Shown here in pieces: positions 18,123-33,327 of a stretch of DNA of 64,000 nt; positions within the stretch are counted from its first letter, which is position 1; every line of letters starts with the position of its first letter. The notes beneath the pieces were generated by a model that saw nothing but the letters and a program-made list of their open reading frames with translations, was not told the DNA's origin and did not search any database. The position numbers and the translations under genes were made by a program. This stretch comes from Elusimicrobiota bacterium (GTDB lineage: Bacteria; Elusimicrobiota; Elusimicrobia; UBA1565; UBA9628), in NCBI GenBank assembly GCA_033875325.1, contig JANRKA010000111.1, positions 66,790-130,789 on the forward strand, read 5' to 3'.

Positions 18123-18131
18123 TCTTTGAAC

Positions 18132-18140
18132 ATTATACCA
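18132..18140 (-). promoter_or_regulatory. Extended -10 promoter TGGTATAAT, 9 nt upstream of ATG 18122
   Basis: The 26-nt gap reads on the minus strand GCCCATAG-TGG-TATAAT-GTTCAAAGA-ATG. There is no Shine-Dalgarno sequence. Confidence 0.6.
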
Positions 18141-18148
18141 CTATGGGC

Positions 18149-19234
18149 TCAGGATGCGTAGAGGCGGGAGAGGGCCGCCAACTGCCTCTCCCGGGAGAAC
18201 TCCCGCCGCACCCGCTCCCGCCCGGCCTCGCCCAGGCGGCGGCGCTCCTCGGGACGGTCGATGAGGCGCTGGCAGGCCTCGAGCAGCTCGACTTCGGTCT
18301 TGACCAGCACGCCCGCGTCGCCGACCGCGTCGCGGTTGCCCGGGATGTCGGAGGCGACCACGGCCGCGCCGGCGGCCATCGCCTCGAGCACGGCGTTGGG
18401 CAAGGCGTCCCACTTCGAGTAATGCACGAAGAGGTCCACGCCCGCCAGACGGCGGCGCGCCTCCTCGGCGGGCAGCCAGCCGGTGATGTCGGTCTTGGCG
18501 GTCAAGTTCATGTTCTCGAGGTTCACGCGCACGCGGGCCTCGTCCTCGCCGCCGCCGATCCAGGCCATGCGCAGGCCGTTGCGCGAGTCCGTCAGCCGTT
18601 GGGCCAGCAGCACCCAGGCGTCGGGGTCGCGCGCGGCCGTCAGGCGGCCGCAGGAACCCACGACCAGCCCGTCGTGCGGCAGACGCGCGGGGAAGTCGCC
18701 GAGGTAGGCGTCGTTGACGACGTGCACCGGACGGCGTCCGACGAGCTCGCGCGCGAGCGCGGCTTCGCCCTCGGACACGGCGACGGTCTCGCCGATGCGG
18801 CCCATGACGCGTTCGAGGGCCTTGTACAAAGCGCGTTTGGCGGCCGGGCGGTCGCGCATCAGGAAGCCGTAGCCGTGCGGGCTGTAGAAGATCTTCTTGA
18901 CGCCCGCGGACTTGGCCGCGGCGCGCGCCAATACGCCGGCCTTCGACGAGTGCGCGTGCACCGCGTCGGGCCTGTGTTCGGCGAAGAGGCGGCGCAGCTC
19001 GCGCAGCGCGGCGGCGTCTTGGACCGGCGAGATCTCGCGGGTCAGCTCCGGCACGAAGTAAGCCGCCTTCGCCCCGGCGCATTTCGCGCGGTAGGCTTGA
19101 GGGTCGGAGTCGCGGACGGCGTAGACCAGCGACACCTCGAAACGCGCGGGGTCGAGCCCGTTGCAGATGCCGGCGACCTGCTCGCCCGTGCCGCCGGGGC
19201 CGCCGCATTCGACGACCTGGAAGACCTTGATCAT
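18149..19234 (-). CDS. Glycosyltransferase family 4 (GT-B, retaining type)
   Basis: Internal ATG 19234 (MIKVFQVVECGGPGG) overlaps the upstream TGA by 4 nt. The C-terminal motif is DALPNAVLEAMAAGAAVVASDIPGNRDAV. Confidence 0.85.
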   Translation of the reverse strand: MIKVFQVVECGGPGGTGEQVAGICNGLDPARFEVSLVYAVRDSDPQAYRAKCAGAKAAYFVPELTREISPVQDAAALRELRRLFAEHRPDAVHAHSSKAGVLARAAAKSAGVKKIFYSPHGYGFLMRDRPAAKRALYKALERVMGRIGETVAVSEGEAALARELVGRRPVHVVNDAYLGDFPARLPHDGLVVGSCGRLTAARDPDAWVLLAQRLTDSRNGLRMAWIGGGEDEARVRVNLENMNLTAKTDITGWLPAEEARRRLAGVDLFVHYSKWDALPNAVLEAMAAGAAVVASDIPGNRDAVGDAGVLVKTEVELLEACQRLIDRPEERRRLGEAGRERVRREFSRERQLAALSRLYAS

Positions 19235-20478
19235 GCGCGCAGCCTCCGGAGGAGCTCCTCGGCCGCGAAGGGGAAGAGCATGGGAAGATAGAGCAGCTTG
19301 TGGCGCCCCGCGCTGCCGAGGTCGAACTCCATCAGCGCGGAGCCGGCGGTCATGAGCGCGAAGAAGACGAGCGGCACGACCGACGCGGGTTTCCAGTCCC
19401 GGCGGCGCGCGAGTCCGGCGGCGGCGGCGACGGCGAGCGCGAGCAGGAGGAGGTTCTCGCCCGACGCGAGCAGGCGGCCGAGCTTGCCATCGGACGGGTA
19501 GAGGCCCGGCAGCGGCTGGAACAGGACCGTGAACGCCGCGCTCGGGAGGAACGCGGCGACGTCGAACCAATCCTCGAACCGTGCGTCGGGCCGGATCTGC
19601 GTGCCGATGCGGCGGTTGTGGGAATAAAATGCGTATTCACGGTCGGACGCTTGCCGCTGAGCTCGTCGGTGGCTGAGGCCGCGCGGCGTCCAAGGGGGTG
19701 GGACGGGCCCTGAAACGGCGATGGGGGCCAGGGGCGGCAGGGTGGCCGGCACGCTCGGGGGCAGGGGTATGACCCGCTCGAAGAGGCCGGCGGACAACGC
19801 GTGGTACGCGGGGACGGCGGCCAACGCCGCGAGCAGGACCAAGGCGGCGGCCGGGCGCGCGCGCCGCGTCTTCAAGGCCCACGCCGCGCCCAGGGCGAAG
19901 GCCGCGCAGGACACCGCGAGCACGTAGGAGCGCAGGAAACCCGCGGCGACGAGCAGCAGCAAGGCCGCGGCGAGGCGCCTCGGCGAGGGCCGCTCGCCGT
20001 CGAGGACGGGAAGAAGCAGGGCCCACGCGCCGAACAGCAGCGCGAAGGTCGGCGCCTCCTTGAAGTTCTGCGAGGTGTAGAACGCGTGCGACGGCCACGC
20101 GGCGACGAGGGCCGCGGCGGCCAGCGCCGCGCGCTCGGATACGACGGCGCGAAACGCGAGCCCGAGCAGGACCACCGCCAGCGCCCCGAGCGCGGCGTTG
20201 ACGAGCTTCACCGGGTACGGCCGCGGCCCGACAAGGAGATAGGGCACCGCGATGAGCGCCGCGTGCGCGCGCTGCGAGGCGGAATACGGCAGAGGCTTCG
20301 CCCGGCCGGTTTTCCAGGTGTCGCTGAGGTCGCGCGCCAGGCTTTCCGCGAAACGGGCGTCCTGGTAATAGTAGGAGGGGAACAGGGGAGCGAATTCGGT
20401 CAGCGTCGCCGTGCCGGCCCGCAGGAGGAAGGCCGCCGCGCCCAGCAGCAGCCAGCGGCGCGCGTCAGTCGGCGACAC
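19231..20478 (-). CDS. Polytopic membrane protein, GT-C-like (PMT_2/ArnT-like) glycosyltransferase candidate
   Basis: GTG start at 20478. There are about 10 hydrophobic segments, and a first loop rich in aromatic and acidic residues (FPSYYYQDARFAESLARD). It lies directly downstream of a Dpm1-like GT2. Confidence 0.65.
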   Translation of the reverse strand: MSPTDARRWLLLGAAAFLLRAGTATLTEFAPLFPSYYYQDARFAESLARDLSDTWKTGRAKPLPYSASQRAHAALIAVPYLLVGPRPYPVKLVNAALGALAVVLLGLAFRAVVSERAALAAAALVAAWPSHAFYTSQNFKEAPTFALLFGAWALLLPVLDGERPSPRRLAAALLLLVAAGFLRSYVLAVSCAAFALGAAWALKTRRARPAAALVLLAALAAVPAYHALSAGLFERVIPLPPSVPATLPPLAPIAVSGPVPPPWTPRGLSHRRAQRQASDREYAFYSHNRRIGTQIRPDARFEDWFDVAAFLPSAAFTVLFQPLPGLYPSDGKLGRLLASGENLLLLALAVAAAAGLARRRDWKPASVVPLVFFALMTAGSALMEFDLGSAGRHKLLYLPMLFPFAAEELLRRLRA

Positions 20479-21157
20479 GGTAGCGCAGGAGGCACCACAG
20501 GTAGGAGAAGGCGTCCTTCCAGGTGATCTTCTTGCCCTCGGCGTAGGTGCGGCCGCTGTAGGAGATGGGCACCTCGTAGAGCCGCAGACGCCGCTTGCAG
20601 ACCTTGGCGGTGAGCTCGGCCTCGATGCCGAAGCGTTCGCTCTCCAGAGGGATGGCCTTCAGCAAGTCGGCGCGGAAGGCCTTGTAGCAGGTGCCCATGT
20701 CCGAAAGGTTGATGTCATAGAGCACGTTGGTCAGGAGGGTGAAGAACTTGTTGGCGGCGAAGTGCCAGAACAGCAGCACGCGGTGCGGCCCGCCCATGAA
20801 GCGGGAGCCGTAGACCGCGTCGGCGCGGCCGTCGAGCAGGGGCGCGAGCAGCCCGGGCCAATCGGCGGGGTCGTATTCGAGGTCCGCGTCCTGGATGACG
20901 ACGAAATCGCCGGTCGCGCGCTCCAGCGCGGTGCGCACGGCCGCGCCTTTGCCGCGATTGACCTCGTGGAAGACGACCTCGGCGCGCCCCGGCGCCAGGG
21001 CGCGCAGCAGCTCGCGCGTGCCGTCGGTGGACGCGTCGTCGACGAGCACGACCTGGCGGCCGACGGGCAGGGCGACGGCCTCGACTCGACGCAGGAGCTC
21101 GAGAACGGTGTCCTTCTCGTTGTAGACCGGGATGAGGACGCTGAGGGTCTTCGTCAC
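20465..21157 (-). CDS. Glycosyltransferase family 2, Dpm1/ArnC-like polyprenyl-phosphate glycosyltransferase
   Basis: GTG start at 21157. Motifs: LSVLIPVYNE, VLVDDASTDGT, VVIQDADLEYDP, 230 aa. Confidence 0.85.
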   Translation of the reverse strand: MTKTLSVLIPVYNEKDTVLELLRRVEAVALPVGRQVVLVDDASTDGTRELLRALAPGRAEVVFHEVNRGKGAAVRTALERATGDFVVIQDADLEYDPADWPGLLAPLLDGRADAVYGSRFMGGPHRVLLFWHFAANKFFTLLTNVLYDINLSDMGTCYKAFRADLLKAIPLESERFGIEAELTAKVCKRRLRLYEVPISYSGRTYAEGKKITWKDAFSYLWCLLRYRVAD

Positions 21158-21163
21158 GGGGAG

Positions 21164-21169
21164 ATTATA
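21164..21169 (-). promoter_or_regulatory. -10 box TATAAT, 6 nt upstream of GTG 21157
   Basis: The 16-nt gap reads on the minus strand TAA-CGCC-TATAAT-CTCCCC-GTG. Confidence 0.5.
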
Positions 21170-21173
21170 GGCG

Positions 21174-23144
21174 TTATTCGCCGGGCCGCGCGACGCGTCC
21201 GGTCACGATTCCGAGCCGTCTCGGGCGGGTGCCGGGCTCGAGCGCGTACACGGTCAGCTCGAGCCGGGCGACGGCGGCCGTCGGGGCCTTGCGCAGCGCG
21301 AAGCGTTGGCGCAGGACGGCGCCGGCGGCGGGCAGCCCGCGGTGGGCGGCGTCGTCCACGAGAGGCCACAGGACCGGGTAGCTGCCTTTGCCCGAGCGGC
21401 GCGGGAAGACCGGATCGAGCACGACGGAGTCCGCGGCGTCAAGGCCGCGCGCCACGATGGCCAAGACGGGCAGGGAGGACCCGGTCACGGACCATTCCAA
21501 AGCGATCTCCGTGGAGTCGCCGCGCGCGGCGAGCGTCGCCGCGCGCAGGGTCAGAGGCCCCGCGCGCGGGGCGGCCGCATCCGGCCGCGCGGGCCGCGCG
21601 AGGCTCGATTCGATGAGCGCCGCCTCGAGCCGCATCCGAGGGCGCGCCGCGCAGGGGCCGGGCCGCAGGTCGAGGCGGCGCTCGCCGCCGCCCGGCAGCT
21701 CGAGCTCCAGCGAGGCGGCGCAGGCGAAGCCGCGGGTCGCGCCGTCAAAGACGAGCACCGCGGCGCCCGACGCGGGCGTCCAGTTGAACGCGTCCGCGGG
21801 GAACACGGACAGGTCGTTGAAGTAGAGGATGCCGGCGCGCGTCGGAGTCGGGCCGTAGTCGCCGCGCTGCAGGTCGACGCCGAGGGCGCGCCCCGCCGCG
21901 AGCGACACGTCATGGTGGAGATTGAACGCGGGCGCTTTGCGCAGGCGGCGGGGGGCGTCGAGCGTGAAGACGGCCGTGGGCGCGGAGGGCAGGCGGCGCA
22001 GCTCCGACGCGAACGCCTCCTTGAGTCGCGCTGAGTCGGCCCACTGGGTGGCCTCATGAGCGTTCGCGACCACGGCCATGGCGAACGCGAGCGCGCCGGC
22101 GGCGGTCAGCGCGGGGCGCGCCGCGGGGCGTCGGCGCCAGAGCGCGCCGGCGACGGCGGCCATCGCCAAGGTCCAGCCGAAGGAGGGCAGAAGGTTGTGG
22201 CGAGGGCTGATGTACCAGAACAGGTTCGGCCCGTAGGCCGCCGCCGTCCAAGCCGCGCCGAACGCGGCGGGCAGGCGCCAGTCCCGGGCGACGGGGTCGC
22301 CGCGCTTCAACTCGCGGGCGAGCCACCATGCCGCGCCGAGCCCGGCGACGGAGGCCAGGACGGTCCAGGCCCAATGCGCGTGGGAGGTCGAGGGCCACGG
22401 CAGGAGACCGTGAGCCACCGCCTGAGCGGCGTCGTAGACGCGGCGGGCCGCGTCCGCCGTCCGGATGAGCGGCCTGCCGCCCGAGGCGTGCGGCGAGAGG
22501 TAGCGCAGCGCCGTGTGCGCCGCGTTGAGGGTCGCGAACCCGAGCGCCGCGAGGGCGTAAGGCTTCATCGTGCGGCGCTCTTCGTGGAGCCACGCGGCGG
22601 CGAGCAGCAGAGGCCATAAGAAGTAAACCTGGTCGTAGGTGAACAAGGCGACGGTGAACAGCGAGAACGCCGTGATCAGCCGGGGTCCGCGCGGCGAGGT
22701 CGCGCACAGGAAGGCGCCGAGGGTCAGCGCCATGGGGATCTGGCACTGCGGTATCAGCGTTATCCAGAAGTGCGTCTCGCCGTGGTTCGGGGCGACGGCG
22801 AACGCCGCGGCCGTCACCGTCGCCGTCGCGCGCGACCCGCTGAGGCGCGAGGCGAGGTGATAGGCCATGAAGACGAGGATGGCGTCGAATGCGGTCGAGA
22901 CCAGGTGCAGCGCGAGGTCCGACGCGCCGGTCAGTCTCAACAGCAGCGCGAAGAAAGGCACGTGGAGGTTCCGGCCGGGGACGTAGCGGATGAACTCGTG
23001 CCAGAGCCGCTCCGGCCCCGCTCCCTCGAGCGCGCGAAGGAACGAATAATCGTCGAGGTAGAAGCCGCAGACCGCCGCCGCCGGGGCGAACAGGGCCGCG
23101 GTGAAGAGCGCGAGCGCGAGCGGGACGCGTTGGGTCCCGCTCAC
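21174..23144 (-). CDS. Large polytopic membrane protein with a ~250-aa C-terminal extracytoplasmic domain; GT-C-like candidate
   Basis: The start is taken at GTG 23144, which overlaps the upstream TGA (GTGA). The upstream 40 codons of the tracked ORF are Arg-rich. After TM1 comes FYLDDYSF, an acidic first-loop motif typical of GT-C enzymes. Many TM segments follow, then a soluble tail. Confidence 0.65.
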   Translation of the reverse strand: MSGTQRVPLALALFTAALFAPAAAVCGFYLDDYSFLRALEGAGPERLWHEFIRYVPGRNLHVPFFALLLRLTGASDLALHLVSTAFDAILVFMAYHLASRLSGSRATATVTAAAFAVAPNHGETHFWITLIPQCQIPMALTLGAFLCATSPRGPRLITAFSLFTVALFTYDQVYFLWPLLLAAAWLHEERRTMKPYALAALGFATLNAAHTALRYLSPHASGGRPLIRTADAARRVYDAAQAVAHGLLPWPSTSHAHWAWTVLASVAGLGAAWWLARELKRGDPVARDWRLPAAFGAAWTAAAYGPNLFWYISPRHNLLPSFGWTLAMAAVAGALWRRRPAARPALTAAGALAFAMAVVANAHEATQWADSARLKEAFASELRRLPSAPTAVFTLDAPRRLRKAPAFNLHHDVSLAAGRALGVDLQRGDYGPTPTRAGILYFNDLSVFPADAFNWTPASGAAVLVFDGATRGFACAASLELELPGGGERRLDLRPGPCAARPRMRLEAALIESSLARPARPDAAAPRAGPLTLRAATLAARGDSTEIALEWSVTGSSLPVLAIVARGLDAADSVVLDPVFPRRSGKGSYPVLWPLVDDAAHRGLPAAGAVLRQRFALRKAPTAAVARLELTVYALEPGTRPRRLGIVTGRVARPGE

Positions 23145-24313
23145 GCCCGTGGTCCGGCGCCCCACAGCCAGCTGAGCAGGAAGAAGGTCGCGGCCTGTTC
23201 GGTCTGCCAGGCGGTTTCGGTGAGGTTCATGACGACGAAGGCGGCCGTCGCGGCCAGCGACCACAACGCGGCCGCGTCGCGGCGTTCCAGCCAGGCTCGC
23301 CGCGCGCCGGCGTAGAAGGCCCAGAACAGCGCCAACAGCAGGCCCAGGCCCGGAAACCCGCGCTCGGCGAGCTGATGGAGGAAAAGGTTGTGGGCCGAGC
23401 CCCAGACGCGCTCACCGTCGAGCGCGCCCTGCGCGCCGGTCTCCTCGAAGGCGCGGCGGAAGCTGCCGGGTCCCACGCCCGTCACCGGACGCTCGCGCGC
23501 CATGGCGAGCGCCGCGTCCCAGAGCACGAGACGGGCGCGGTGCGCCGAAGCTTCGGGGCTGTCCGAAAGCAAAGTCCGCAGGTTGCGTCCGCCGGTCGGC
23601 GCGAACTCCCAGGCGACGCCCAACGCGACGAGCGAGACGAGCGCGGCGAGCAGCCCGCGGCGCAGCCGCGGGACCTCGAGGGCGGCCGCGGTGGCGGCCG
23701 CGGCCGACGCGAGCAGCACGGCGCGCGTCTGATTCGCCGCGAGCGCGGCGAGCAGGAGCAGAGCGCCGGCCGCCGACGCCCGTCTCGCGCCGGGGGCCAG
23801 GGCCGCCAACCCCAGGCAGGCCGCCGCGCCGATGAGCCCGAGCCCGATCATCTCGCCGTAGACGACGGCGTGCACGAAGCCCCTCGCCCGCACGAAGCCG
23901 GCCTCGCCGCCGCTGAGAAACACGGTCTGCCCCAGGCCGACGAGCGCGGCCGCGACGAGGCCGGCGGCCAGGCCCGCGCGCGTTTTGGCGCGCGGCACGG
24001 AGCCCAGGGCGGCGCCCAGGGCGAGAAACGCCCACAAGCGGTGCAGCTCCTTGGGCCAGGCGCGCAGCCCGCGGGACGAGTCGAGACCGGCGGCGGCGCA
24101 GACCAACGCCCAGACCGCGCCCGCCGCGAGCAGCTTGAAGACGGGAGAACGCAGGGCGTCACGCAGCGCCGCGCGCAAGCCGGGGTCGGAGCTCCAGGAC
24201 GCGGCGAGCGAGACGGTGAGCACGCCGAGCGCGGCATTGACGCCGGCGATGGAGAGCGGCGCGGCGAACGCCGCGGCGGCGAGGGCCCACTGCGAGACGG
24301 CGCGCGGGTTCAT
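23141..24313 (-). CDS. O-antigen ligase / polymerase family (Wzy_C domain) membrane protein
   Basis: Full tracked ORF. It is polytopic, with a signature loop WGSAHNLFLHQLAERGFPG. Confidence 0.8.
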   Translation of the reverse strand: MNPRAVSQWALAAAAFAAPLSIAGVNAALGVLTVSLAASWSSDPGLRAALRDALRSPVFKLLAAGAVWALVCAAAGLDSSRGLRAWPKELHRLWAFLALGAALGSVPRAKTRAGLAAGLVAAALVGLGQTVFLSGGEAGFVRARGFVHAVVYGEMIGLGLIGAAACLGLAALAPGARRASAAGALLLLAALAANQTRAVLLASAAAATAAALEVPRLRRGLLAALVSLVALGVAWEFAPTGGRNLRTLLSDSPEASAHRARLVLWDAALAMARERPVTGVGPGSFRRAFEETGAQGALDGERVWGSAHNLFLHQLAERGFPGLGLLLALFWAFYAGARRAWLERRDAAALWSLAATAAFVVMNLTETAWQTEQAATFFLLSWLWGAGPRA

Positions 24314-24320
24314 CGGCGTC

Positions 24321-24326
24321 AGTCTA
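24321..24326 (-). promoter_or_regulatory. -10-like box TAGACT, 7 nt upstream of ATG 24313
   Basis: The 13-nt gap reads on the minus strand TAG-TAGACT-GACGCCG-ATG. Confidence 0.4.
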
Positions 24327-25829
24327 CTACATCGACGGCGCGAGCCTGTAGACCCGGGCCGTGACGCCGGGCGCGACGGGGACGCTGGCCGTCAGGCGCG
24401 CGGGCAGTCGTCCCGATTCGACCGCCGCGGCGACGCCGGCGTTGGCGCGGTTGAGGAAGCCGGGGGCCTGCGCGACCGGCTCGCCCTCCACCAGGACGAG
24501 GGCCGTCGCGCCGCGGTCCTTGAGGCGCAGCAGCGCGCCCTCGACGCTCGACTGCGCGTAGCCCAGGCTGATGCAGCGCAGCGCCAGCCCGCGGGCGGCG
24601 GACGCCGAAGCGAGGTTGTTCGCGTTGAGGCGGCGGTCCTCCAACGCGAGCGCGACGACGCCGTCCTCGCCCGCGGCGGCGGCGGCGGCGGTCACGAGCG
24701 CGTCGCGGTCCCAGGCGGCCTCGCGCGACGGAGCGCCGCTCCAGGGCATGCTCGTCCCGGCGGGGGCCAGGAAGGTCTCGCGGACGAACACCCCGCCGCC
24801 GGTCGCGAGCAGCAGAACGGCGGCGGCGACGCGCGGCGCCCGCCCTTCGAGCGACGAGGCGGCGCCAGCGGCAAGCAGCGCCAGGCCCGGCAACGCGGGT
24901 GCGACGAGCCGCGGCTCGGCGTTGACGCCGGCGGCGAAGAGGAGCAGGGGCGCGAGCCAGGCGAGGGCGAAACGCGTCCCCGCGTCGAAGAACACGCGGC
25001 CGCGCGCGGCCGCCGCGGCCGTGACCAGCGCGAGGGCCGCGGCGAAGGGCCAGGACAGGGCGCCGGCGCACAGCCGGAAGGGGAACGAGAGCGGCCCTCC
25101 GCCGGCGTAGTCGGCCGCGACGCGCCCGAACGCGGCGCTCCAGGCGAAGGCGAGGACGAAGGGCAGGTTGAAGGCGTACCAGGTCGCGGCGAGGACGGAC
25201 CCCAAGAACAGCGCCGCGCGCGCGTGCGGGGCCAGCGCGCCCCTCCTCAGCCAGACGAAGCCGGCGACGAACGCGGGGAAGGTCACCTTGGCGAGCAGGC
25301 CCAAGCCGAGGAGCAGGCCCAGGACGGAGGCTTCGCGCGCGTCCCGGCGGGCCGCGGCGACGCGCCAGGCCGCGGCCGCCGTCAGCGCCGTGAGCAGGCT
25401 CTCGACGAGGAAGACGCGCGAGAGCCCGTAGAGCAGCGGCGTCAGCGCGACGAGGCTGGCGGCCAGCGCGGCCGCGCGCTCGCGCCGCTCGTCGTCGCGC
25501 CACAGCTCCCGGGCCGTCGCGGCGGTGAACGCGCAGGTCGCTCCGTGCAGGACGAGGCCGGTGAGGGCCGCGGCCTTCTCCGAAGGGCCGACGAGCGCGT
25601 ACAGCGGCAGGGGCAGCAGGCTGACCAGGGGCGCTTTGGTCCGGAAGGCGCCCGCCCATTGCGCGGCGAAGTCGGCGAGTCCGCGGCCGAGGGCGTGGAA
25701 GAGGCGGAAGGAGACCTCGAGGTACCAGGCGTCGTCCCAAGCCGGCGCGGCGGTCTCGGCGGCGACGCGCCACGCTCCGGCCGCGAGGACGGCGCCCACG
25801 AGCAGCGCGGCCGCGCGGCGCGGGGTCAC
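24327..25829 (-). CDS. ArnT/PMT_2-type (GT39/GT83-like) GT-C membrane glycosyltransferase
   Basis: The start is taken at GTG 25829, which overlaps the upstream TGA (GTGA). The first loop is APAWDDAWYLEVSF. There are multiple TM segments and a ~130-aa C-terminal soluble domain. The remaining 891 codons of tracked ORF 24327-28502 are wrong-frame. Confidence 0.8.
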   Translation of the reverse strand: MTPRRAAALLVGAVLAAGAWRVAAETAAPAWDDAWYLEVSFRLFHALGRGLADFAAQWAGAFRTKAPLVSLLPLPLYALVGPSEKAAALTGLVLHGATCAFTAATARELWRDDERRERAAALAASLVALTPLLYGLSRVFLVESLLTALTAAAAWRVAAARRDAREASVLGLLLGLGLLAKVTFPAFVAGFVWLRRGALAPHARAALFLGSVLAATWYAFNLPFVLAFAWSAAFGRVAADYAGGGPLSFPFRLCAGALSWPFAAALALVTAAAAARGRVFFDAGTRFALAWLAPLLLFAAGVNAEPRLVAPALPGLALLAAGAASSLEGRAPRVAAAVLLLATGGGVFVRETFLAPAGTSMPWSGAPSREAAWDRDALVTAAAAAAGEDGVVALALEDRRLNANNLASASAARGLALRCISLGYAQSSVEGALLRLKDRGATALVLVEGEPVAQAPGFLNRANAGVAAAVESGRLPARLTASVPVAPGVTARVYRLAPSM

Positions 25830-28660
25830 TGGCGGGTCTCCCAGGCGCGGTAGGCGAGGAACCAGGCCGAGCCCAGCGCGAAGGCGGTCGCCAGGGCGGC
25901 CGCCGCGCCGGCCACGCCGTGGGAGGGCGCCAGGCGGACGACGAGCAGGACGTTGGCGGCGCCGGTGATGAGACCTCCGGTCACCGACACGCGCAGCCCG
26001 GAGAAGTCGCGCGCGGAGTAGAGGGCCGAGAGAACCCCATGGAGCAGAGCGAACGCCGCGGCGGCGGCGAACAGCGCGACCCACGACCAGTCCAGAGGGT
26101 AGCGGCGACCGAAGACGGCGAGCGCGGCGAGCAGCGCGGCGGCGAACGCGACCCAGGCGGCCAGCGCGGCGGGCAGGGCCCAGCGGCGCGCGAGCGCCCA
26201 GGCTTCGGCCTGGCCGCGCGGGTCGCTGGCCAACGGCACCACGACGGACTGCAGCATGTGGAGCAGCGCGAGAGCGACCTGGAGCGACGCGGTGAAATAC
26301 GCGCTGAAGAGGCCCACGGTCGCGGCTTCGCCGGAGGCGTGGAGCGCGAAGCGCGCCGGCGCGAGCACGCAGGCCACGGCCAGGAGGTTGAGGGTGGCCA
26401 CCGCGGCGTAGCGCCAGACCGCGGGCAGCACCTCCTTCTCCCAGGCCGGCGTCAGCCAGCGGCGCAGGCACCACAACGCGTACACGGTGCCCGTGGCCCA
26501 CGCGGCGCCCGTCGCGGCGAGCATGGCGCGGTGGTCGGCGCCCAGCAGGAACAACGCGGCCGCCAACGCCGGCGGCGCGGTGAAGCCGTACACCGCCTCG
26601 ACGAGCCCGCGGTGCGCGAAGCGCTTGAGGCCCAGCAGCGGGCTCGCGACCACGACGAAGAGGGCGTTGAGGGCGGACAGGCCCAACGACAGCGCGTACA
26701 GCGAGGGGGGCAGATCCAGCGCGCGCTCGAGGGAGCGGTGCACGACGCCGAGGAGGGGCATCACGAGCAGGGTCCAGGCGAGGAAGGAGGCCAGCGCCGT
26801 GGAGACGAAGCGCGCCCGTCGCGTCTCGTCCTCTTCCGCCGCCAGCAGCTTGCCGATGGCCGTCGGGAAACCCAGCATGGGCACGATCTGGAGATAGGCG
26901 ATGGCCGCCAGCACGAGATTGGCCCGTCCGAACTCCTCGGGACCGAGCAGGCGTCCGGCCGCGATCTGCGTCAACAGGGTCGAGACCTTGGCCAGGCCGA
27001 ACAGGGCGCCTATCCAGCCGAGCCCGCGCAGCAGCGAGGGCAGAGGCGACGGCGCGTCGTGGCCGCGGCCCTTGCGGGCGCGCGCGAGGATGGCGTCGGG
27101 CCCGGCGGGCTCCCCGTCCGCGGCGTCGGCGACGAGCGCGGGCTTGAGCTGAGCGAGCAGTTGCTCCGCGCCCGGGCAGGCGCCGAGTCGCACGGCGATG
27201 ACGGAGGGCCCGAGCCCGAGGTCGTGCAGCAGGTCGGCCAGCCGCGGGGCGAGCAAAGCGTGGTTGACTTCGCGGGCGAGCCGGCTGCGACCGTCGAGCA
27301 GCGGCGCGGCGAGGCGCGCGACGCCGGGAGGCAGGCCGCGGTCCCGGTCGAGCAAGCCGTCGAGCAGGGCCCGGACGAAGCCGCGGCTCAGCTCGACGAT
27401 GAAGACGCGCCGCCCGTCCGCTGCCCAGGCGGCGGCCTCCTCGCGCCGGCGCGCGTCCCAGTCTTCCCAGGCGTCCGCGCTGAGCAGGACGGCGTCGAGG
27501 CTCAGTCCTGCGGCGGCGCGGCGCTCGCGCGCCGCGTCCACCCGCGCCGCGAAACGCGCGAACTCGGCCTCGGTCGAGTGCTCGCGCGCGTGGGCGACGC
27601 GCGCCTCGCGGCGGGCCGCCGTCTCCGTGCGCGGCAGCTCCTTGGCGATGCGGACCCAGTCTTCGACGGTCTCGGCGACGTAGACGAAGTCCGACATGGC
27701 CTTCAGAGACGGCAGCGGCGCGGCGATGACGGGCCGCCCCGTCGCGAGGCACTCGTATATCTTCGCCGGGATGACGCCCATGAGGAACGGCGTGAGCCGG
27801 TAGGGCAGGAGGAAGACCTCGTGCTCCTCGAGGGACTTGGCCAACGCCCCGCGCTCGACGGGCGGGAAGCGCCGCACGGCCGGGGAGGTCGGGGGCGCGT
27901 TGCCCTTGGTGAAGCCGCGCACGGTCACGCTCAGGCCCGCGGCCGCGAGCGCGTCCGGCACCCGCTCGTCGAGGTCGCCGCTCCAGGTGCCGTAGTAGCA
28001 GGCGTCGTCCCAGGTCCCGCGCGGCGGCTTGAGGCCGAAGAAGTCGGCGGGCACGCCCTGGTGTATCTTCGTCACGCGCGGGTGCTCCGCTCGCTTCTGC
28101 TCGTGGAGGAAGTCCGAGTCGCAGACGACCTCGTCGGCCAACGCGAGGAGAGCCCGTTCCGTCTCGGCGAAATCGGCGGGCGCGTGCGCGTGGCCGCGGA
28201 AGTTGGAGGCGCAGTCGTAGAGCACGGCGGCCGGGCGCAGGCGCCGCGCCAGCTCCACGATGGTCGGCGTCGGCGCGTAGACGACGCAGTCCGCCCCGTC
28301 GCGCAGCCCGGCGCGGCGCAGCTGCTCGAGCAGCCGCGGGATGAACACGCGGGAGTTGAGCGCCCGGAAGAGCCGCCAGGTCGGCGGGAGCACGCGGGGG
28401 GAGAGCACGCGCACGCCGTCGGGGATGGAATTGGAGCCGCTGACCGCGGACGGGAAGGCCTGGTTGCGCAGACGGCGCCACACGCGGGGCAGGTCGCGCC
28501 ACGACGGGTTGCGGAAGCCCGTGTTCTCGACGAAGAACACCTCGTCGCCCCGCGCGGCGAAGGCCGCGGCGAATATCTGGTGGCGCTGCCAGGCCGTGTC
28601 CCAGTCGATGGTGCTCAGGACGACGACCTGACGACGGCCGGGCTTCAACGGCCTCTCCAC
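25826..28660 (-). CDS. Fusion protein: TuaH-like GT4 glycosyltransferase + duplicated half GT N-subdomain + Wzx/MOP-type flippase
   Basis: One uninterrupted frame. Start candidates are GTG 28660 or TTG 28648 (TTGA overlap with the upstream stop). The N-terminal part is VVLSTIDWDTAWQRHQIFAAAFAARGDEVFFVEN...LYDCASNF...IPAKIYECLATGRPVIA. The middle part is AVLLSADAWEDWDARRREEAAAWAADGRRVFIVE. The last ~400 aa are polytopic, with LGPEEFGRANLVLAAIAYLQI, which is typical of polysaccharide flippases. Confidence 0.7.
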   Translation of the reverse strand: MERPLKPGRRQVVVLSTIDWDTAWQRHQIFAAAFAARGDEVFFVENTGFRNPSWRDLPRVWRRLRNQAFPSAVSGSNSIPDGVRVLSPRVLPPTWRLFRALNSRVFIPRLLEQLRRAGLRDGADCVVYAPTPTIVELARRLRPAAVLYDCASNFRGHAHAPADFAETERALLALADEVVCDSDFLHEQKRAEHPRVTKIHQGVPADFFGLKPPRGTWDDACYYGTWSGDLDERVPDALAAAGLSVTVRGFTKGNAPPTSPAVRRFPPVERGALAKSLEEHEVFLLPYRLTPFLMGVIPAKIYECLATGRPVIAAPLPSLKAMSDFVYVAETVEDWVRIAKELPRTETAARREARVAHAREHSTEAEFARFAARVDAARERRAAAGLSLDAVLLSADAWEDWDARRREEAAAWAADGRRVFIVELSRGFVRALLDGLLDRDRGLPPGVARLAAPLLDGRSRLAREVNHALLAPRLADLLHDLGLGPSVIAVRLGACPGAEQLLAQLKPALVADAADGEPAGPDAILARARKGRGHDAPSPLPSLLRGLGWIGALFGLAKVSTLLTQIAAGRLLGPEEFGRANLVLAAIAYLQIVPMLGFPTAIGKLLAAEEDETRRARFVSTALASFLAWTLLVMPLLGVVHRSLERALDLPPSLYALSLGLSALNALFVVVASPLLGLKRFAHRGLVEAVYGFTAPPALAAALFLLGADHRAMLAATGAAWATGTVYALWCLRRWLTPAWEKEVLPAVWRYAAVATLNLLAVACVLAPARFALHASGEAATVGLFSAYFTASLQVALALLHMLQSVVVPLASDPRGQAEAWALARRWALPAALAAWVAFAAALLAALAVFGRRYPLDWSWVALFAAAAAFALLHGVLSALYSARDFSGLRVSVTGGLITGAANVLLVVRLAPSHGVAGAAAALATAFALGSAWFLAYRAWETRQ

Positions 28661-29520
28661 CAGTCCAAAGTGTCGGCGAGGCTGCGCGCGAGCGTGAAGC
28701 GCGGGCGCCAGCCCGTCTCGCGGCGCAGCTTGCGCGCGTCGGCCGCGAGGTCCTGCACCTCGGCCTTGCGCAGGCGCGCGGGGTCCACCCGCACGGCGAC
28801 GGCGGCGGTGGAGGCGGCGAGCAGGCCGTCGAGCACGGCGCGCATCGAGGTGGAGCGGCCCGCGCCCACGTTGTAGCACTCGCCGCCGCGGCCGCGCGCG
28901 CCGAGCGCGAGCAGGGCCTCGGCCGCGTCGCGCGCGTCGAGGTAGTCGCGCCGGGGCGACAGGTCTCCCACGAGCAGTTCCGGGGGTTGGCGTCCGGCCT
29001 CGATGGCCGCGACCTGGCGCGCGAACGCGCCCGGAGCGAGGTTGTCCGGCGTGCCCGGCCCCAGCACGTTGAAGAGGCGGGCGACCACGACGGAGACGGG
29101 GCCGCGGTTGTAGGAGAGGGCGGCCAGGGTCTGCGCGAGCTTGCTGGCGCCGTAGAGAGAAAGAGGCTCCAAGGGCGCGTCCTCGCGCACGACGCGCCGT
29201 CCGCCGGCCGCGCCGTATTCCGCGGCGGAGCCGACGAGCACGACCTTCACCGGGCGGCCCTCCGACGACAGCGCCTCCAGGAGGTTCACCGTGGCCGTCG
29301 CGTGAGACTTCCAGTAATCCTCCCAGGAGCCGGGCCGGGTGCGGCCGGCGAGGTGGAAGACGAGCGAGGGCCGGGCGTCGCGGACCAGGGCACGCGCCGA
29401 GGCGGCGTCGGACAGGTCGAGGTCCCGGTGCCGGGAGAGGAACGGGCGCCGTCCCCGGAGGCGCTGCGCGAGCGGTCCCGCGAGGAAGCCGCCGGCGCCG
29501 GTCAGCAGGACGCGGGCCAC
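28645..29520 (-). CDS. Extended-SDR NAD-dependent sugar epimerase/reductase
   Basis: The start is taken at GTG 29520 (VARVLLTGAGGFLAG). The YGASK catalytic motif is present. The upstream part of tracked ORF 28645-29712 is wrong-frame. Confidence 0.8.
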   Translation of the reverse strand: MARVLLTGAGGFLAGPLAQRLRGRRPFLSRHRDLDLSDAASARALVRDARPSLVFHLAGRTRPGSWEDYWKSHATATVNLLEALSSEGRPVKVVLVGSAAEYGAAGGRRVVREDAPLEPLSLYGASKLAQTLAALSYNRGPVSVVVARLFNVLGPGTPDNLAPGAFARQVAAIEAGRQPPELLVGDLSPRRDYLDARDAAEALLALGARGRGGECYNVGAGRSTSMRAVLDGLLAASTAAVAVRVDPARLRKAEVQDLAADARKLRRETGWRPRFTLARSLADTLDWWRGR

Positions 29521-29527
29521 GCGCGCC

Positions 29528-30520
29528 TCAGACGTTGTAGAGCCCGGCTTTGTAGTCGGCGAGGTGGGCGCGGACGTATTCGACCGTGCGCGCCAGGCCC
29601 TGCTCGAGCGGCACGCGCGGCCGCCAGCCCAGGAGCTTGCGCGCCTTGGCATTGCCGCAGATGAGGCGCATGACCTCGCTGCGCTCGGGGCGGACCCGGG
29701 CGCGCTCCTCACGCACCTCGGCCTTGCGGCCGGTGAGCTTCATGAGCAGGCGCGCGGTCTCGCCGATGGTGACGCCGCGTCCCGAGCCGACGTTGATGAC
29801 CTCTCCCACGGACTTGGGCGAGGCGGCCACCGCGAGGAAGCCGTCCACCGTGTCGGCGACGAAGTTGAAGTCGCGCACCGGGGACAGGGAGCCCAGGTTG
29901 AGCTTGGGCTCCGGCTGCAGGAGCTGGCAGATGATGGTGGGGATGACGGCGCGGGCGGATTGGCGCGGGCCGTAGGTGTTGAAGGGACGGCAGACGGCCA
30001 CCGGCAGGCCGAAGGACTTCTCGAAGCTCAGCGCGAGCTGGTCGGCGCCGATCTTGGTGGCGGCATACGGGGACTGGCCCTGGAGGGGGTGCTCCTCGTC
30101 GATGGGGACGTAGCGCGCGGTGCCGTAGGTCTCCGAGGTCGAGGTGTGGACCACCTTGCGGACCTTGGCGCGGCGGGCGGCCTCGAGCACGTTGAGGGTC
30201 CCCGACACGTTGGCCGCCACGTAGGACGCGGGCGCGGCGTAGGAGTAAGGGATGGCGATGAGGGCGGCGAGGTGGAAGACCACGTCGGAGCCCGCGACCA
30301 GGTCGTTGACGCAGCCCGGGTCGGTGACGTCGCCGGCGCGGATCTCGACGCGGCGTCCCAGCGCCGGGTCGAGCTCCTCGAGGAAGCCCCAGTGCCCGCG
30401 CGAGTTGTAGTGCACCATGGCGCGCACGCGCGCGCCGCGGCGGGCGAGCTCCTCGGTCAGGTGCGAGCCGATGAAGCCCCCGGCCCCGGTCACAGCCACT
30501 CGCGCGTTCTTCCAGTTCAT
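29528..30520 (-). CDS. Extended-SDR NAD-dependent sugar 4,6-dehydratase/decarboxylase/epimerase family protein
   Basis: Full tracked ORF. Motifs: VTGAGGFIGSHL, STSETYG, YAATK. It is preceded by its own promoter. Confidence 0.85.
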   Translation of the reverse strand: MNWKNARVAVTGAGGFIGSHLTEELARRGARVRAMVHYNSRGHWGFLEELDPALGRRVEIRAGDVTDPGCVNDLVAGSDVVFHLAALIAIPYSYAAPASYVAANVSGTLNVLEAARRAKVRKVVHTSTSETYGTARYVPIDEEHPLQGQSPYAATKIGADQLALSFEKSFGLPVAVCRPFNTYGPRQSARAVIPTIICQLLQPEPKLNLGSLSPVRDFNFVADTVDGFLAVAASPKSVGEVINVGSGRGVTIGETARLLMKLTGRKAEVREERARVRPERSEVMRLICGNAKARKLLGWRPRVPLEQGLARTVEYVRAHLADYKAGLYNV

Positions 30521-30527
30521 CGGTTGG

Positions 30528-30536
30528 ATTCTATCA
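30528..30536 (-). promoter_or_regulatory. Extended -10 promoter TGATAGAAT, 7 nt upstream of ATG 30520
   Basis: The minus strand reads TGA(stop)-TAGAAT-CCAACCG-ATG, so the stop codon of the upstream gene supplies the TGn element. Confidence 0.55.
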
Positions 30537-31445
30537 CTTGCCGGATAAGTCGGCGAGGAGGCATTGGACGAAGCGCCCGGCGTTCTTCAAGGAGAACGGC
30601 CAGGACGCGAGCATGCGGCGCGCGTAGGCGCGGCGCAAGGCCTTGTCCGCCCCCGGCTCCAGCAGGGCGGCGGTCGCGGAGCGGTAGACGAACGAGAGGC
30701 GGCGGCTCATGCGCAGGCGGGCGCAGACGCCCGGCTCGGGGCCGAGGCGCTCCCGGAAGTGCTCGCGCAGCAGCGCCTCCAGGTTGTCGTGGTGGTACTG
30801 CACGCGGCGGGACGCCGACCCGGGGACGACGGTGTAGGAGGAGAGGACGGCGTCCAGGAAGCGGAACTCGCCGCGCCGGGCGAGGCGCATCCAGAAGTCG
30901 TAGTCCTCGACCGTGTTGTAACGGTCGCCCTCGCGGAAGCCGCCGATGGCCAGCGCCGCGTCCTTGCGGAACACCGCGGCCGAAGGGGCCACGCAGTTCG
31001 CCTCGAAGAGCAGGCGGTCGTAGAGGTCCGTCCCGCCGGGGCCTTTGCGCTCCACGCGCAGGACCTTGCCGTCCTGCACCACGTCGGTGTGGTGGCCGAC
31101 GAGCACGCAGCCCGGGTGCGCGTCGAGCTCGGCCACGCAGCGGGCTAGCTTGTCCGGCGTCCAGAGGTCGTCGTGGTCGAGCAAGGCGACGAGCTCGCCT
31201 TTGGCCGCCTGGAGGCCGGTGTTGCGCGCGGCGGCGATGCGGCCGTTGGCCCGCCGCACGCAGGTCCCCGCCTTGCCCGTCCGGGCCAGCCACGCGTCGA
31301 CCACGGCCTTCGTGTCGTCCGTCGAGCCGTCGTCCACGACGACCAGCTCCCAGTCCGCGAAGGTCTGCGCCGCCACGCTGTCGAGCGTGGCCGTGATGAA
31401 CTTGGCGGCGTTGTAGGCGGGTATGACGACGGAGACGCGCGGCAT
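30534..31445 (-). CDS. Glycosyltransferase family 2
   Basis: Motifs: VSVVIPAYNAAKFI, LVVVDDGSTDDT, ALLDHDDLW. ATG 31445 shares 1 nt with the upstream TAA. Confidence 0.85.
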   Translation of the reverse strand: MPRVSVVIPAYNAAKFITATLDSVAAQTFADWELVVVDDGSTDDTKAVVDAWLARTGKAGTCVRRANGRIAAARNTGLQAAKGELVALLDHDDLWTPDKLARCVAELDAHPGCVLVGHHTDVVQDGKVLRVERKGPGGTDLYDRLLFEANCVAPSAAVFRKDAALAIGGFREGDRYNTVEDYDFWMRLARRGEFRFLDAVLSSYTVVPGSASRRVQYHHDNLEALLREHFRERLGPEPGVCARLRMSRRLSFVYRSATAALLEPGADKALRRAYARRMLASWPFSLKNAGRFVQCLLADLSGK

Positions 31446-32422
31446 TACAGCCCGAGCTTGCGCACGTCGTGTATCTGGACCAGGCCGACGGCCTTGCCGG
31501 ACTTGTCGACGACGGGCAGGACGCTGAAAGGACGCGGCCGGTCGGTCATGAGCTCGACGGCGTCCATGGCCAGGCGCTCCGGACGGATGGTGGTCGGGCG
31601 CGCGTTCATGACCGAGGCGGCGCGGCGCCCCTCCAACCCGCCCTTCTCCATGGCGTTGCGCAGGTCCGCGTCGGTGACGAGGCCCTTGAAGCGCCCTCGG
31701 CCGTCCACGACCACGGCGGCGCCCGCGTGTTTGGCCGTCATCACGGCGATGAGCGCGCGCAGCGTCGCGTCCTCGCGCGCGGCGGGCAGTTCCGCGCCGG
31801 AGCGCATCACGTCGCGCACGCGCAGGGTCAGGCGCTTGCCGAGCTGGCCGGCGGGATGCAGGAGGGCGAAACGCTCCTTCGTGAAGCCGCGGCGCTCCAT
31901 GAGGGCCACGGCCAGAGCGTCGCCCACGGCCATGGCCGCCGTCGTGCTCGCGGTCGGAGCCAGGTCGAGCGGGCAGGCCTCGCGGCCGACGGGCGTGTGC
32001 AGGACCACGGTCGCGGCCTTGCCGAGGCTGGAGTCGGCGACCGCGGTGATGGCGATGAGCTTCACGCCCAGGCGGCGCAGCACGGGCAACAGCGCGGTCA
32101 GCTCGGAGGACTCCCCGGACTTGCCGATGGCCAGCACGAGGTCGCGCTTTTCGACGAGCCCGATGTCGCCGTGAAGGGCCTCGGCCGGGTGGAGGTGGAG
32201 GGCCGGGGTGCCGGTCGAAGACAGGGTGGCGGCGATCTTGGCGGCGACGAGGCCGGACTTGCCCACGCCGGTGACCACGACCTTGCCGCGGCAGCGGGCC
32301 ATGAGGTCCACGGCCCTCGCGTAAGCCGGGCCGACGGCCGCGCGCGCGGCCTTGAGCGCCGCGGCCTCGAGGTCGAGGGTGCGGCGCACGGAGTCGAGTG
32401 CCGCCTTGTCCTTCGCGCTCAT
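31445..32422 (-). CDS. kdsD: KpsF/GutQ/KdsD-family arabinose-5-phosphate isomerase (SIS + tandem CBS)
   Basis: Internal ATG 32422 (MSAKDKAALD) overlaps the upstream TGA by 4 nt. The SIS motif is VVVTGVGKSGLVAAKIAATLSSTG. Two CBS-like repeats lie at the C-terminus. Confidence 0.9.
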   Translation of the reverse strand: MSAKDKAALDSVRRTLDLEAAALKAARAAVGPAYARAVDLMARCRGKVVVTGVGKSGLVAAKIAATLSSTGTPALHLHPAEALHGDIGLVEKRDLVLAIGKSGESSELTALLPVLRRLGVKLIAITAVADSSLGKAATVVLHTPVGREACPLDLAPTASTTAAMAVGDALAVALMERRGFTKERFALLHPAGQLGKRLTLRVRDVMRSGAELPAAREDATLRALIAVMTAKHAGAAVVVDGRGRFKGLVTDADLRNAMEKGGLEGRRAASVMNARPTTIRPERLAMDAVELMTDRPRPFSVLPVVDKSGKAVGLVQIHDVRKLGL

Positions 32423-33327
32423 GCCCCGCCCTCCATGTGTTCCCTCATGTCGGCCAGCCCGTCGGCGAGCGCCATCGCCTTGACGCCGAGTTCCTTCTCC
32501 ATGCGCTTGACGACGAAGGTGGTGTCCGGCGGGCGCCTGGCGATGGCGGGGAAACGCGCGCTCGTCACGCGTTTGACGAGCCCCGCGTCGAGGCCGAAGG
32601 CCTTCGCCACGGCCAGCCCGAACTCCCAGCGGTTGACCACGGTCTTTCCCGCGAGGTGGAAGACGCCCGAGGGGCGTTTCTTGAGGACGGCCCACAAAGC
32701 GCGGCCGCACTGCCGGTTGTAGAGCGGGTTCTCGCGCACGTCGTCCACGAGCTCGACGGCTTCCCCGCGCAGGAGCTTCTCATAGACCCAGGTCGCGGGG
32801 TTGGGGCGCGTGACCGTGCGGTTCCAGCCGTACATCAGGATGGGGCGCACGATGGTCCACTTCTCGAGGGTCTCCTGCACCAGACGCTCGCACTCGACCT
32901 TCAGGCGGCCGTATTTGTTGACGGGGTTGGTCGGGTCCTTCTCCGAATAGGGCGCGTCGGTCCCGTCGAAGACGGCGTTGGTCGAGACGTAGACCAGGTG
33001 GATGCCGCGCGTGCGGCAGGCCGCCGTCACGTTGAGCGTGGAGACGATGTTGGACTCGAGGCTCTCCGCGTATTTGGTCTCGACGTAGTCCACGCTGGCG
33101 ATGCCGGCGGCATGGATGACGGCGTCGAACTTGTGGCGGGTGAAGAGCCGTTCCACCGCGCGTTTATCGCGCAGGTCCACGGACAGGTGCCGGGCGCGTT
33201 TGGCCGGGACCTTGTAGTCGCGCAGGTGGACGGAGGTGATGGCGACCCCGGAAGGGGCCGTCTCTTCCAGGCCCTTCCCTAATAGGCCGGTCCCGCCGGT
33301 GACGAGGATGTGAGGCCGGGCGCTCAT
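32419..33327 (-). CDS. RmlD-like (dTDP-4-dehydrorhamnose reductase family) SDR sugar reductase
   Basis: Internal ATG 33327 (MSARPHILVTGGTGLLG). The YGRLK motif is present; the product is 302 aa. The remaining 366 codons of tracked ORF 32419-34425 are wrong-frame. Confidence 0.8.
   Translation of the reverse strand: MSARPHILVTGGTGLLGKGLEETAPSGVAITSVHLRDYKVPAKRARHLSVDLRDKRAVERLFTRHKFDAVIHAAGIASVDYVETKYAESLESNIVSTLNVTAACRTRGIHLVYVSTNAVFDGTDAPYSEKDPTNPVNKYGRLKVECERLVQETLEKWTIVRPILMYGWNRTVTRPNPATWVYEKLLRGEAVELVDDVRENPLYNRQCGRALWAVLKKRPSGVFHLAGKTVVNRWEFGLAVAKAFGLDAGLVKRVTSARFPAIARRPPDTTFVVKRMEKELGVKAMALADGLADMREHMEGGA

Follow-up and report, generated by a model that had tools for sequence, protein, structure and literature searches.

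In the 64,000-nucleotide stretch of Elusimicrobiota DNA analysed here (the window), a single gene on the minus strand joins three parts in one 944-residue chain: a glycosyltransferase (GT) of the GT-B fold, half of a second GT, and a flippase of the Wzx type. Taken as a whole, we consider it reasonably probable that this is a genuine bifunctional inner-membrane protein of a surface-glycan locus that serves the classical Wzx step, in which a lipid-linked glycan unit is finished and then flipped, and that its middle segment (MID) is the relic of a replaced GT. The parts themselves are ordinary, namely a Wzx/MOP flippase and a GT-B enzyme of the Glyco_trans_1_4 clan; it is their fusion that is unstudied. 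Three features are specific to the present case: the GT is N-terminal, GT types have been exchanged within a single flippase clade, and a vestigial half-enzyme bears witness to such an exchange. Since all the parts belong to well-known families, the finding is useful rather than startling.

The frame is uninterrupted from a GTG codon at 28660, from which the 944 residues are counted, to a TGA stop at 25828-25826, as a first-pass annotation of the DNA had described. One database entry (P0002; L and P numbers denote our loci and proteins) is the identical 944-residue protein, and the two peptides that the annotation quoted are both present in it. The longest open reading frame (ORF) in this frame extends to 28879, where it overlaps the upstream epimerase gene. 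The true start is likely to be a TTG codon at 28648-28646, which would give 940 rather than 944 residues: it is preceded by a Shine–Dalgarno-like GGAGAGG (28658-28652), it overlaps the TGA stop of the epimerase gene (28647-28645), and homologues start 4-7 residues ahead of a conserved RRQVVVLS motif, at the point equivalent to TTG 28648. At the other end, the stop codon overlaps the GTG start of the downstream GT-C gene (25829-25827) in a GTGA tetranucleotide. These overlaps suggest translational coupling to both neighbours, all three genes being part of a long glycan operon on the minus strand.

With a genomic G+C content of ~75%, the openness of the frame proves nothing by itself, because long chance ORFs are common at this composition; indeed, a 985-aa ORF lies on the strand opposite the fusion gene. 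Moreover, relatives with frameshift artefacts do occur: P0004 (locus L001) runs on into the GT-C gene, the frame of L008 shifts within the GT domain, and the sequence of P0097 is garbled. Both points speak for the possibility, raised in the first-pass annotation, that an assembly or sequencing error hides a stop, or that the cell makes a separate flippase from an internal start. We nevertheless regard this as very improbable. The G+C content at third codon positions (GC3) is 0.90-0.97 in each 40-codon window spanning both domain junctions, such that its periodicity is unbroken. The ratio of non-synonymous to synonymous substitution rates (dN/dS) between relatives is 0.15-0.24 for the GT (residues 10-375), 0.26-0.51 for MID (residues 385-535), which also has conserved motifs, and 0.08-0.19 for the flippase (residues 545-940); purifying selection acts on each of the three parts. 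Scanning one genome per species turned up 60 related loci, most of them titled Elusimicrobia or Elusimicrobiota (four are labelled 'bacterium' only), and in ~35 of them, from independent metagenome assemblies of different studies, the GT and the flippase lie in a single stop-free frame at 40-85% identity. Within the fusion ORF there is no in-frame ATG, GTG or TTG between residues 491 and 552, and no Shine–Dalgarno motif was found at the candidate internal starts before residue 491; thus, there is no sign of a separately translated flippase. Additionally, AlphaFold2 (AF2), supplied with 60 homologues, models the entire chain confidently, with a mean predicted local distance difference test score (pLDDT) of 91.5 and a predicted template-modelling score (pTM) of 0.79. 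Given the continuity of GC3, the dN/dS values, and the identical protein and ~95 homologues in the collection, the frame is coding from end to end, and the fusion is not an assembly artefact.

The homologues comprise a long class, which has MID and measures 915-966 residues, and short classes of ~790 residues, in which the GT is joined directly to the flippase; their GT-B domains are of two types, A and B. For the GT part of the fusion, Foldseek searches of the PDB gave MshA as the best match (3c4q; E 1.2e-10, target template-modelling score, TMt, 0.69), followed by BshA, PglA and GumK. Together with the order of secondary structure elements in the AF2 model, these matches support two facing Rossmann-like domains, that is, a GT-B fold, for residues 1-380. 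Sequence profiles recognize the domain less readily: Glyco_trans_1_4 (PF13692) scores 14.6 bits against a cut-off of 27, and TuaH (NF047676), the sole NCBIfam match of the domain, scores 39.9 bits against a cut-off of 550, both weak matches being located at residues 266-364, and the cut-off of Glycos_transf_1 (PF00534) is not reached by the fusion protein. However, three stand-alone relatives (P0130, P0113 and P0158) pass the PF13692 cut-off with 27.8-32.3 bits, and, because they do, the wider GT family belongs to the Glyco_trans_1_4 Pfam clan. A profile search of PDB sequences returned MshA as its sole match (E 0.03), covering the C-terminal half of the GT. The alignment takes in the nucleotide-sugar-binding region, including the second glutamate of the EX7E motif (Glu303), before which five residues are inserted. 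Glu303 is nearly invariant, whereas the first glutamate is replaced by Thr or Pro in the long class but retained in the A-type short class, and the spacing between the two positions is five residues longer than in the canonical motif. Also conserved in the GT alignment are Lys252, Asp149, Cys150 and an IHQGV motif. We predict that the domain is a complete and active cytoplasmic GT-B enzyme, remotely related to Glyco_trans_1_4 and TuaH; of the earlier designation as a TuaH-like GT4 enzyme, the GT-B fold is borne out, but the likeness to these families is no more than distant.

The C-terminal part, residues 541-944, is a flippase of the MOP fold. Polysacc_synt (PF01943) matches residues 543-812 with 38.7 bits (cut-off 28.2), and also matches 16 of 17 homologues. 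Hydropathy delineates twelve transmembrane helices, at approximately residues 546-568, 580-598, 616-640, 654-676, 686-707, 711-731, 745-766, 782-810, 826-850, 858-880, 890-910 and 915-938, and a basic, cytoplasmic linker precedes the first of them. For the AF2 model of this part, the best Foldseek match is the Escherichia coli lipid III flippase WzxE (9g9n; E 6.5e-10, TMt 0.75), and MurJ and MATE proteins come next; hydropathy and structural matches thus agree on twelve helices in two six-helix bundles. In Wzx proteins the N-terminus is cytoplasmic, as in the WzxE structures 9g9n and 9g9m. Since the basic linker and the helices agree with this topology, a cytoplasmic location of the first 540 residues fits the model. 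The architecture described in the first-pass annotation, with a GT-B enzyme, a half-GT segment and a Wzx-type flippase in one chain, is supported, and the topology prediction that it had recommended as a check places all the helices after the linker.

The middle segment is a homologue of the N-terminal half of a GT-B enzyme. The internal repeat noticed in the first-pass annotation is real: BLASTP aligns MID with the N-terminal half of its own chain over 136 residues (28% identity, 36.6 bits, E 5e-8), and the order of β-strands and α-helices is the same as in residues 11-150, both in the full model and when MID is modelled alone. However, where that annotation saw a duplication, MID does not appear to be a copy of its own N-terminal half; its closest relative is the corresponding half of the paralogous A-type GT, and in this sense it does appear to be the remnant of a second transferase. 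Against an A-type N-terminal half (e.g. P0041), BLASTP gives 60 bits (E 3e-15, 37% identity), compared with E 1e-4 for the B-type; the hhalign scores are 179 for the A-type, 124 for the B-type and 116 for its own N-terminal half (with a probability of 99.8% for a GT-B N-terminal half), and the A-type scores best for all nine MID sequences in the profile comparison. Moreover, the MID motif N-x-ALLAPRLADLLHD-GL is almost the same as NAALLAPRLADILHDRGL of the A-type, whereas its own N-terminal half has NSRVFIPRLLEQLRRAGL. Modelled alone, MID forms five β-α units (pLDDT 83), and its Foldseek matches are weak and generic (Rossmann and GT-B folds; E 0.01-0.07), many of the 50 matches listed being GT-B enzymes.

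As to what MID does, all five residues that are invariant in the N-terminal half (Pro93, Tyr128, Asp149, Cys150 and Phe154) are replaced, ~14 residues after β2 are deleted, and the partner C-terminal half is absent, for which last reason MID, as judged from its sequence, cannot be a transferase. MID does keep the hydrophobic residues and glycines at the positions that define the fold. Compared with the adjoining domains, it has a dN/dS two to three times as high, yet well below 1, and therefore represents a constrained, apparently folded spacer rather than neutral sequence. Comparison of the long and short classes shows that it is inserted exactly at the junction between GT and flippase.

A history for this arrangement is suggested by two trees that disagree. 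In the GT tree, the long-class GT falls within the B-type clade (support 100/100), and a forced grouping with the A-type is rejected (approximately unbiased, AU, test; p-AU 2e-6). In the flippase tree, by contrast, the flippases of the long class and those of the A-type are sister groups (support 99/97). Because of this disagreement, and because MID is closest to the A-type, a chimeric origin is indicated, and the long form looks like a module replacement caught midway. An ancestral fusion of an A-type GT to the flippase would have gained a B-type GT at its N-terminus; the old A-type GT would then have lost its C-terminal half, leaving the N-terminal half as a folded but catalytically dead spacer under relaxed purifying selection. 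L010/P0030 (795 residues) lies inside the long clade in both trees and is without MID; it seems to represent the final stage of the replacement, from which the remnant has been lost.

Judged by sequence, related flippases are fused to four types of GT (A-type GT-B, B-type GT-B, GT4 and TuaG-like GT2) or stand alone: in addition to the GT-B fusions, the clade includes fusions to a TuaG/HpsE-like GT2 (L016, P0094-P0096) and to a canonical GT4 (P0118), and stand-alone flippases are found in L038 (8087-9370) and L032. Conversely, the GT is followed by a stop codon and stands alone in L011, L015, L024, L028, L040-L046, L048-L051, L054 and L059. Among 1.84 billion cluster representatives, about a dozen 50%-identity clusters have a GT–flippase fusion of this family and one has the long form; most GT relatives there are stand-alone proteins of ~375 residues.

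The fusion gene lies in a locus (Table 1) with nucleotide-sugar enzymes, several cytoplasmic GTs and a Wzy_C protein, and the region 18000-33000 of the window is syntenic with most related Elusimicrobia loci (L002-L061). The recurrent order in most of these is SIS/CBS isomerase, GT2, two epimerase/dehydratases, GT(-flippase), GT-C, Wzy_C, small GT2 and GT-C. The Wzy_C gene is thus syntenic in most of them, and a GT-C gene directly follows the flippase in 25 of 38 loci. The small GT2 is the most conserved protein of the locus (63-89% identity across related loci), and its best matches are the models for AglJ, dolichyl-phosphate hexose transferase, ArnC and PpgS. It persists in loci that are without the flippase and without any GT-C genes, so its lipid-sugar product would need another consumer there. 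Presence and absence were checked in 17 whole genomes, 13 with a stand-alone GT and 4 positive controls: the flippase family is absent from all 13 and present in all 4, and a GT-C homologue is absent from 12 of the 13 and present in 3 of the 4. The 13 genomes do hold other Polysacc_synt genes, none of which is near the locus in a PF01943 search. Since the flippase and GT-C genes either co-occur or are jointly absent, they behave as one accessory module, inserted next to a core set of GT, Wzy_C and small GT2.

Table 1. Coordinates of the fusion gene, its parts and neighbouring genes in the window
Feature	Position	Strand	Basis or remark
Whole ORF: GT-B, vestigial half-GT and Wzx flippase	25826-28660	minus	Open frame, identical protein, AF2
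Probable start region: TTG and Shine–Dalgarno-like GGAGAGG	28646-28658	minus	Homologue starts
Complete GT-B domain (predicted), residues 1-380, B-type clade	27521-28660	minus	Foldseek, tree, dN/dS
MID, residues 381-540, degenerate N-terminal half, apparently A-type	27041-27520	minus	BLASTP, hhalign, motif
Flippase of MOP/Wzx type, residues 541-944, 12 transmembrane helices	25829-27040	minus	Pfam, hydropathy, Foldseek
GT-C membrane glycosyltransferase (PMT_2/ArnT-like)	24327-25829	minus	Next downstream of the fusion gene
Wzy_C-family protein (O-antigen ligase/polymerase-like)	23141-24313	minus	Pfam Wzy_C E 1.2e-19
PMT_2-like GT-C, 656 residues, large C-terminal extension	21174-23144	minus	Between Wzy_C and small GT2
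Small GT2, 230 residues, Dpm1/ArnC-like	20465-21157	minus	Profile matches
GT2, TuaG best match	30534-31445		109 bits

We propose that the GT-B domain, on the cytoplasmic face of the inner membrane, would add a late, possibly the final, sugar to an oligosaccharide linked to undecaprenyl diphosphate (Und-PP), that the tethered twelve-helix domain would flip the finished lipid-linked unit to the periplasmic face, and that the co-encoded Wzy_C-family and GT-C enzymes would ligate, polymerize or decorate it there. The operon context (cytoplasmic GTs, Wzy_C and nucleotide-sugar genes) points to an Und-PP-linked oligosaccharide as the probable substrate of the flippase; the enzymatic activity, the identity of this substrate, the action of the fused GT as the last of the series, and a direct handover are likewise parts of the proposal. 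The strongest argument for placing the protein at the Wzx step is that all the GT types found in fusions with this flippase clade are elongating enzymes, and none is a polyprenyl-phosphate sugar synthase like Dpm1 or ArnC. The tether would impose a 1:1 stoichiometry, hold the transferase at the entrance of the flippase and favour completed units. Wzx proteins have been found to favour complete units of the cognate type, and dead-end undecaprenyl phosphate (Und-P) intermediates to be harmful or costly (PMC6436433, PMC11759038, PMC11784914); given both, it is plausible that joining a late GT to the flippase would bring an advantage. The link between the last sugar addition and export that the first-pass annotation suggested is likewise plausible. 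A stronger form of the proposal, which we consider doubtful, is that the fused GTs of the clade are obligate gates that pass their product straight into the Wzx cavity, such that completed units only are exported, and that, jointly, the vestigial half-domain has been co-opted as an adaptor that positions the replacement GT or binds the lipid-linked acceptor. Such an adaptor role would explain why MID is under purifying selection and appears to have stayed folded.

Several observations weigh against the proposal. The GT domain matches named GT families weakly and the long class does not conserve the first EX7E glutamate, so that the donor, the acceptor and even the activity of the enzyme are putative. 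Stand-alone GT orthologues occupy the same position of the locus in the 13 genomes that are without the flippase family; therefore, the GT does not need the flippase, and the fusion may at first have arisen by chance between two adjacent genes. In its distribution the flippase follows the GT-C genes and not Wzy_C, and no initiating phosphoglycosyl transferase was found among the neighbouring genes scanned (18141-32419). As regards the history, forcing the long-class flippase to group with the B-type is only marginally worse (p 0.08), and an AU test on the 178-column alignment of N-terminal halves does not reject a grouping of MID with its own N-terminal halves (p 0.215; other value 0.393). The assignment of MID is based instead on the pairwise scores, the profile scores and the shared motif.

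This association with the GT-C genes also fits a role like that of GacK. In Streptococcus pyogenes, the GacI/J/K/L system has a Wzx-family flippase that acts on Und-P-GlcNAc and has a GT-C partner. By analogy, the MOP domain would flip an undecaprenyl-monophosphate sugar made by the small GT2 for use by the GT-C enzyme in a three-component periplasmic glycosylation, and the fused GT-B would merely be an attached neighbour, or a modifier of the lipid-linked donor, with no Und-PP-oligosaccharide being completed. The position of GT-C genes directly after the flippase, with the GTGA overlap seen here, the joint absence of flippase and GT-C from the stand-alone-GT genomes, and the resemblance of the small GT2 to enzymes that make lipid-phosphate sugars all favour this alternative. 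Nevertheless, we think it unlikely, and the same applies to the idle or donor-modifying GT-B that it entails: the modules fused to the flippase clade are elongating enzymes (GT-B, GT4 or TuaG-like GT2) and never Dpm1-like, the Dpm1-like small GT2 is kept in loci with neither flippase nor GT-C and is hence not tied to them, and the many cytoplasmic GTs together with Wzy_C need a flippase for an Und-PP-glycan, for which no second MOP flippase was found in the window. A different alternative is that the full GT-B domain is also inactive and forms, together with the half-domain, a docking or regulatory platform for the flippase, a notion for which the mycobacterial MurJ homologue MviN, with its fused cytoplasmic pseudokinase domain, offers a precedent. 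The subthreshold Pfam and NCBIfam scores and the missing first glutamate are in keeping with such a pseudoenzyme, and the protein already tolerates one dead GT fragment. However, the dN/dS of the GT is lower than that of MID, polar residues at typical GT-B active-site positions are invariant (Lys252, Glu303, Asp149, His200 and Gly202), and no family-invariant residue has been lost, unlike in MID; moreover, stand-alone orthologues of ~375 residues are widespread and some reach the Glyco_trans_1_4 cut-off. We therefore judge an inactive scaffold to be improbable, and retain the proposal of a late-acting GT tethered to a Wzx flippase.

Comparison with known systems underlines how the parts have been combined. 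E. coli WzxE (PF01943; structures 9g9n, 9g9m and 9g95) shares the twelve-helix MOP fold and is the best structural match, and the fusion gene is part of a glycan locus that includes cytoplasmic GTs and Wzy_C; however, the sequence identity to the fusion flippase is 16-18%, and characterized Wzx proteins are stand-alone polypeptides of ~400-500 residues, whereas 540 cytoplasmic residues are added at the N-terminus here. The teichuronic acid operon of Bacillus subtilis encodes TuaH (a GT), TuaB (Wzx-like), TuaG (a GT2) and TuaE (Wzy_C-like). The present locus recalls it in that TuaH is matched by the GT domain and TuaG by a GT2 of the locus, and in that a Wzy_C gene follows. Nevertheless, the Tua proteins are separate, and the scores lie far below the equivalog cut-offs (39.9 versus 550 and 109 versus 400, respectively), which indicates family resemblance and not orthology. 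With the retaining GT4 enzymes MshA (3c4q), BshA and PglA, the GT domain shares the two-Rossmann GT-B fold, and its IHQGV motif resembles the GT4 'NGVD' turn; it differs in the poor profile match to MshA, in the loss of the first EX7E glutamate in the long class and in the five-residue insertion.

The systems GacI/GacJ-GacK-GacL of S. pyogenes, ArnC-ArnE/F-ArnT and GtrB-GtrA-GtrX resemble the locus in their Dpm1-like GT2, flippase and GT-C, the latter two being adjacent and co-inherited here. In these systems, however, the partner of the flippase is an unfused GT-A polyprenyl-phosphate sugar synthase, as opposed to a fused GT-B of the elongating type. MviN is likewise a MOP flippase with a large, cytoplasmic and partly non-catalytic extension, but its extension is C-terminal, kinase-like and regulatory, and that of the present protein is N-terminal and made of GT modules. 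The statement of the first-pass annotation that transferase and flippase are normally separate proteins thus holds for the characterized systems; within this flippase clade, on the other hand, fusion to a GT is common. A literature search on GT–Wzx fusions found no paper describing the combination, and databases name the homologues 'oligosaccharide flippase family protein' or give both COG functions.

How GTs hand lipid-linked units over to Wzx, and how Wzx comes to prefer complete units, are open questions in the field (PMC6436433, PMC11759038). A natural covalent chain of GT and Wzx is 'Rosetta-stone' evidence for a physical interaction of the two steps, and, being conserved in the Elusimicrobia metagenome-assembled genomes (MAGs) sampled, the fusion offers a tractable single-polypeptide target for electron cryo-microscopy and biochemistry. 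If the stronger, obligate-gate form of the proposal is true, it would be a natural single-chain GT–Wzx complex that could reveal the substrate recognition of Wzx structurally. Furthermore, the long form would be a preserved intermediate of module replacement, with the new GT in and half of the old one deleted, and the sister lineage its end state; together they would show how modular glycan machinery can be rewired.

In the host genome (3.63 Mb, 204 contigs, ~92% complete), the fusion occurs as a single copy, and three further Polysacc_synt genes lie elsewhere. The best Pfam match of the genome (139 bits) falls in a 1077-aa open frame with Polysacc_synt (G000 C84:32490-33284; L063), which is not a second fusion: its upstream part is Arg-rich and comes from reading through an adjacent gene in a different frame, and the true flippase, of ~480 residues, stands alone. 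The closest relative of the fusion protein (83% identity) is P0004, in locus L001 10001-14314 (= L002; GCA_965283875.1, contig CBDIQC010000001.1), which at 1437 residues would be a triple fusion of GT, flippase and GT-C. This was rejected, as the last transmembrane helix is replaced by out-of-frame sequence (…GVAGAAQRLVQRIRVGRG…), and the read-through looks like a frameshift, owing either to an assembly error or to a pseudogene. In L008 (6001-7106 of CP096137.1, a 'complete genome' MAG), the GT domain of a long-form orthologue is split across two frames near residue 190, probably through a frameshift error or because the gene is a pseudogene.

The 656-residue GT-C of the window is absent from the same position in L001/L002, and its homologues (32-35% identity) follow the flippase in L018, L023, L036 and L037. 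In L038 (5998-10641), a stand-alone A-type GT comes first, then a methyltransferase-like gene that runs in the opposite direction (7157-7927), the stand-alone flippase, which belongs to the long-form clade, and finally a GT-C gene; the arrangement represents either a fission or a pre-fusion state. Finally, one MAG (LC012, JAKFCD01) carries two paralogous clusters, L005 and L030, of which one has a long-form fusion and the other a short fusion of the A-type. As GT-C, Wzy_C and small GT2 are present in both copies, two glycans may be made in parallel.

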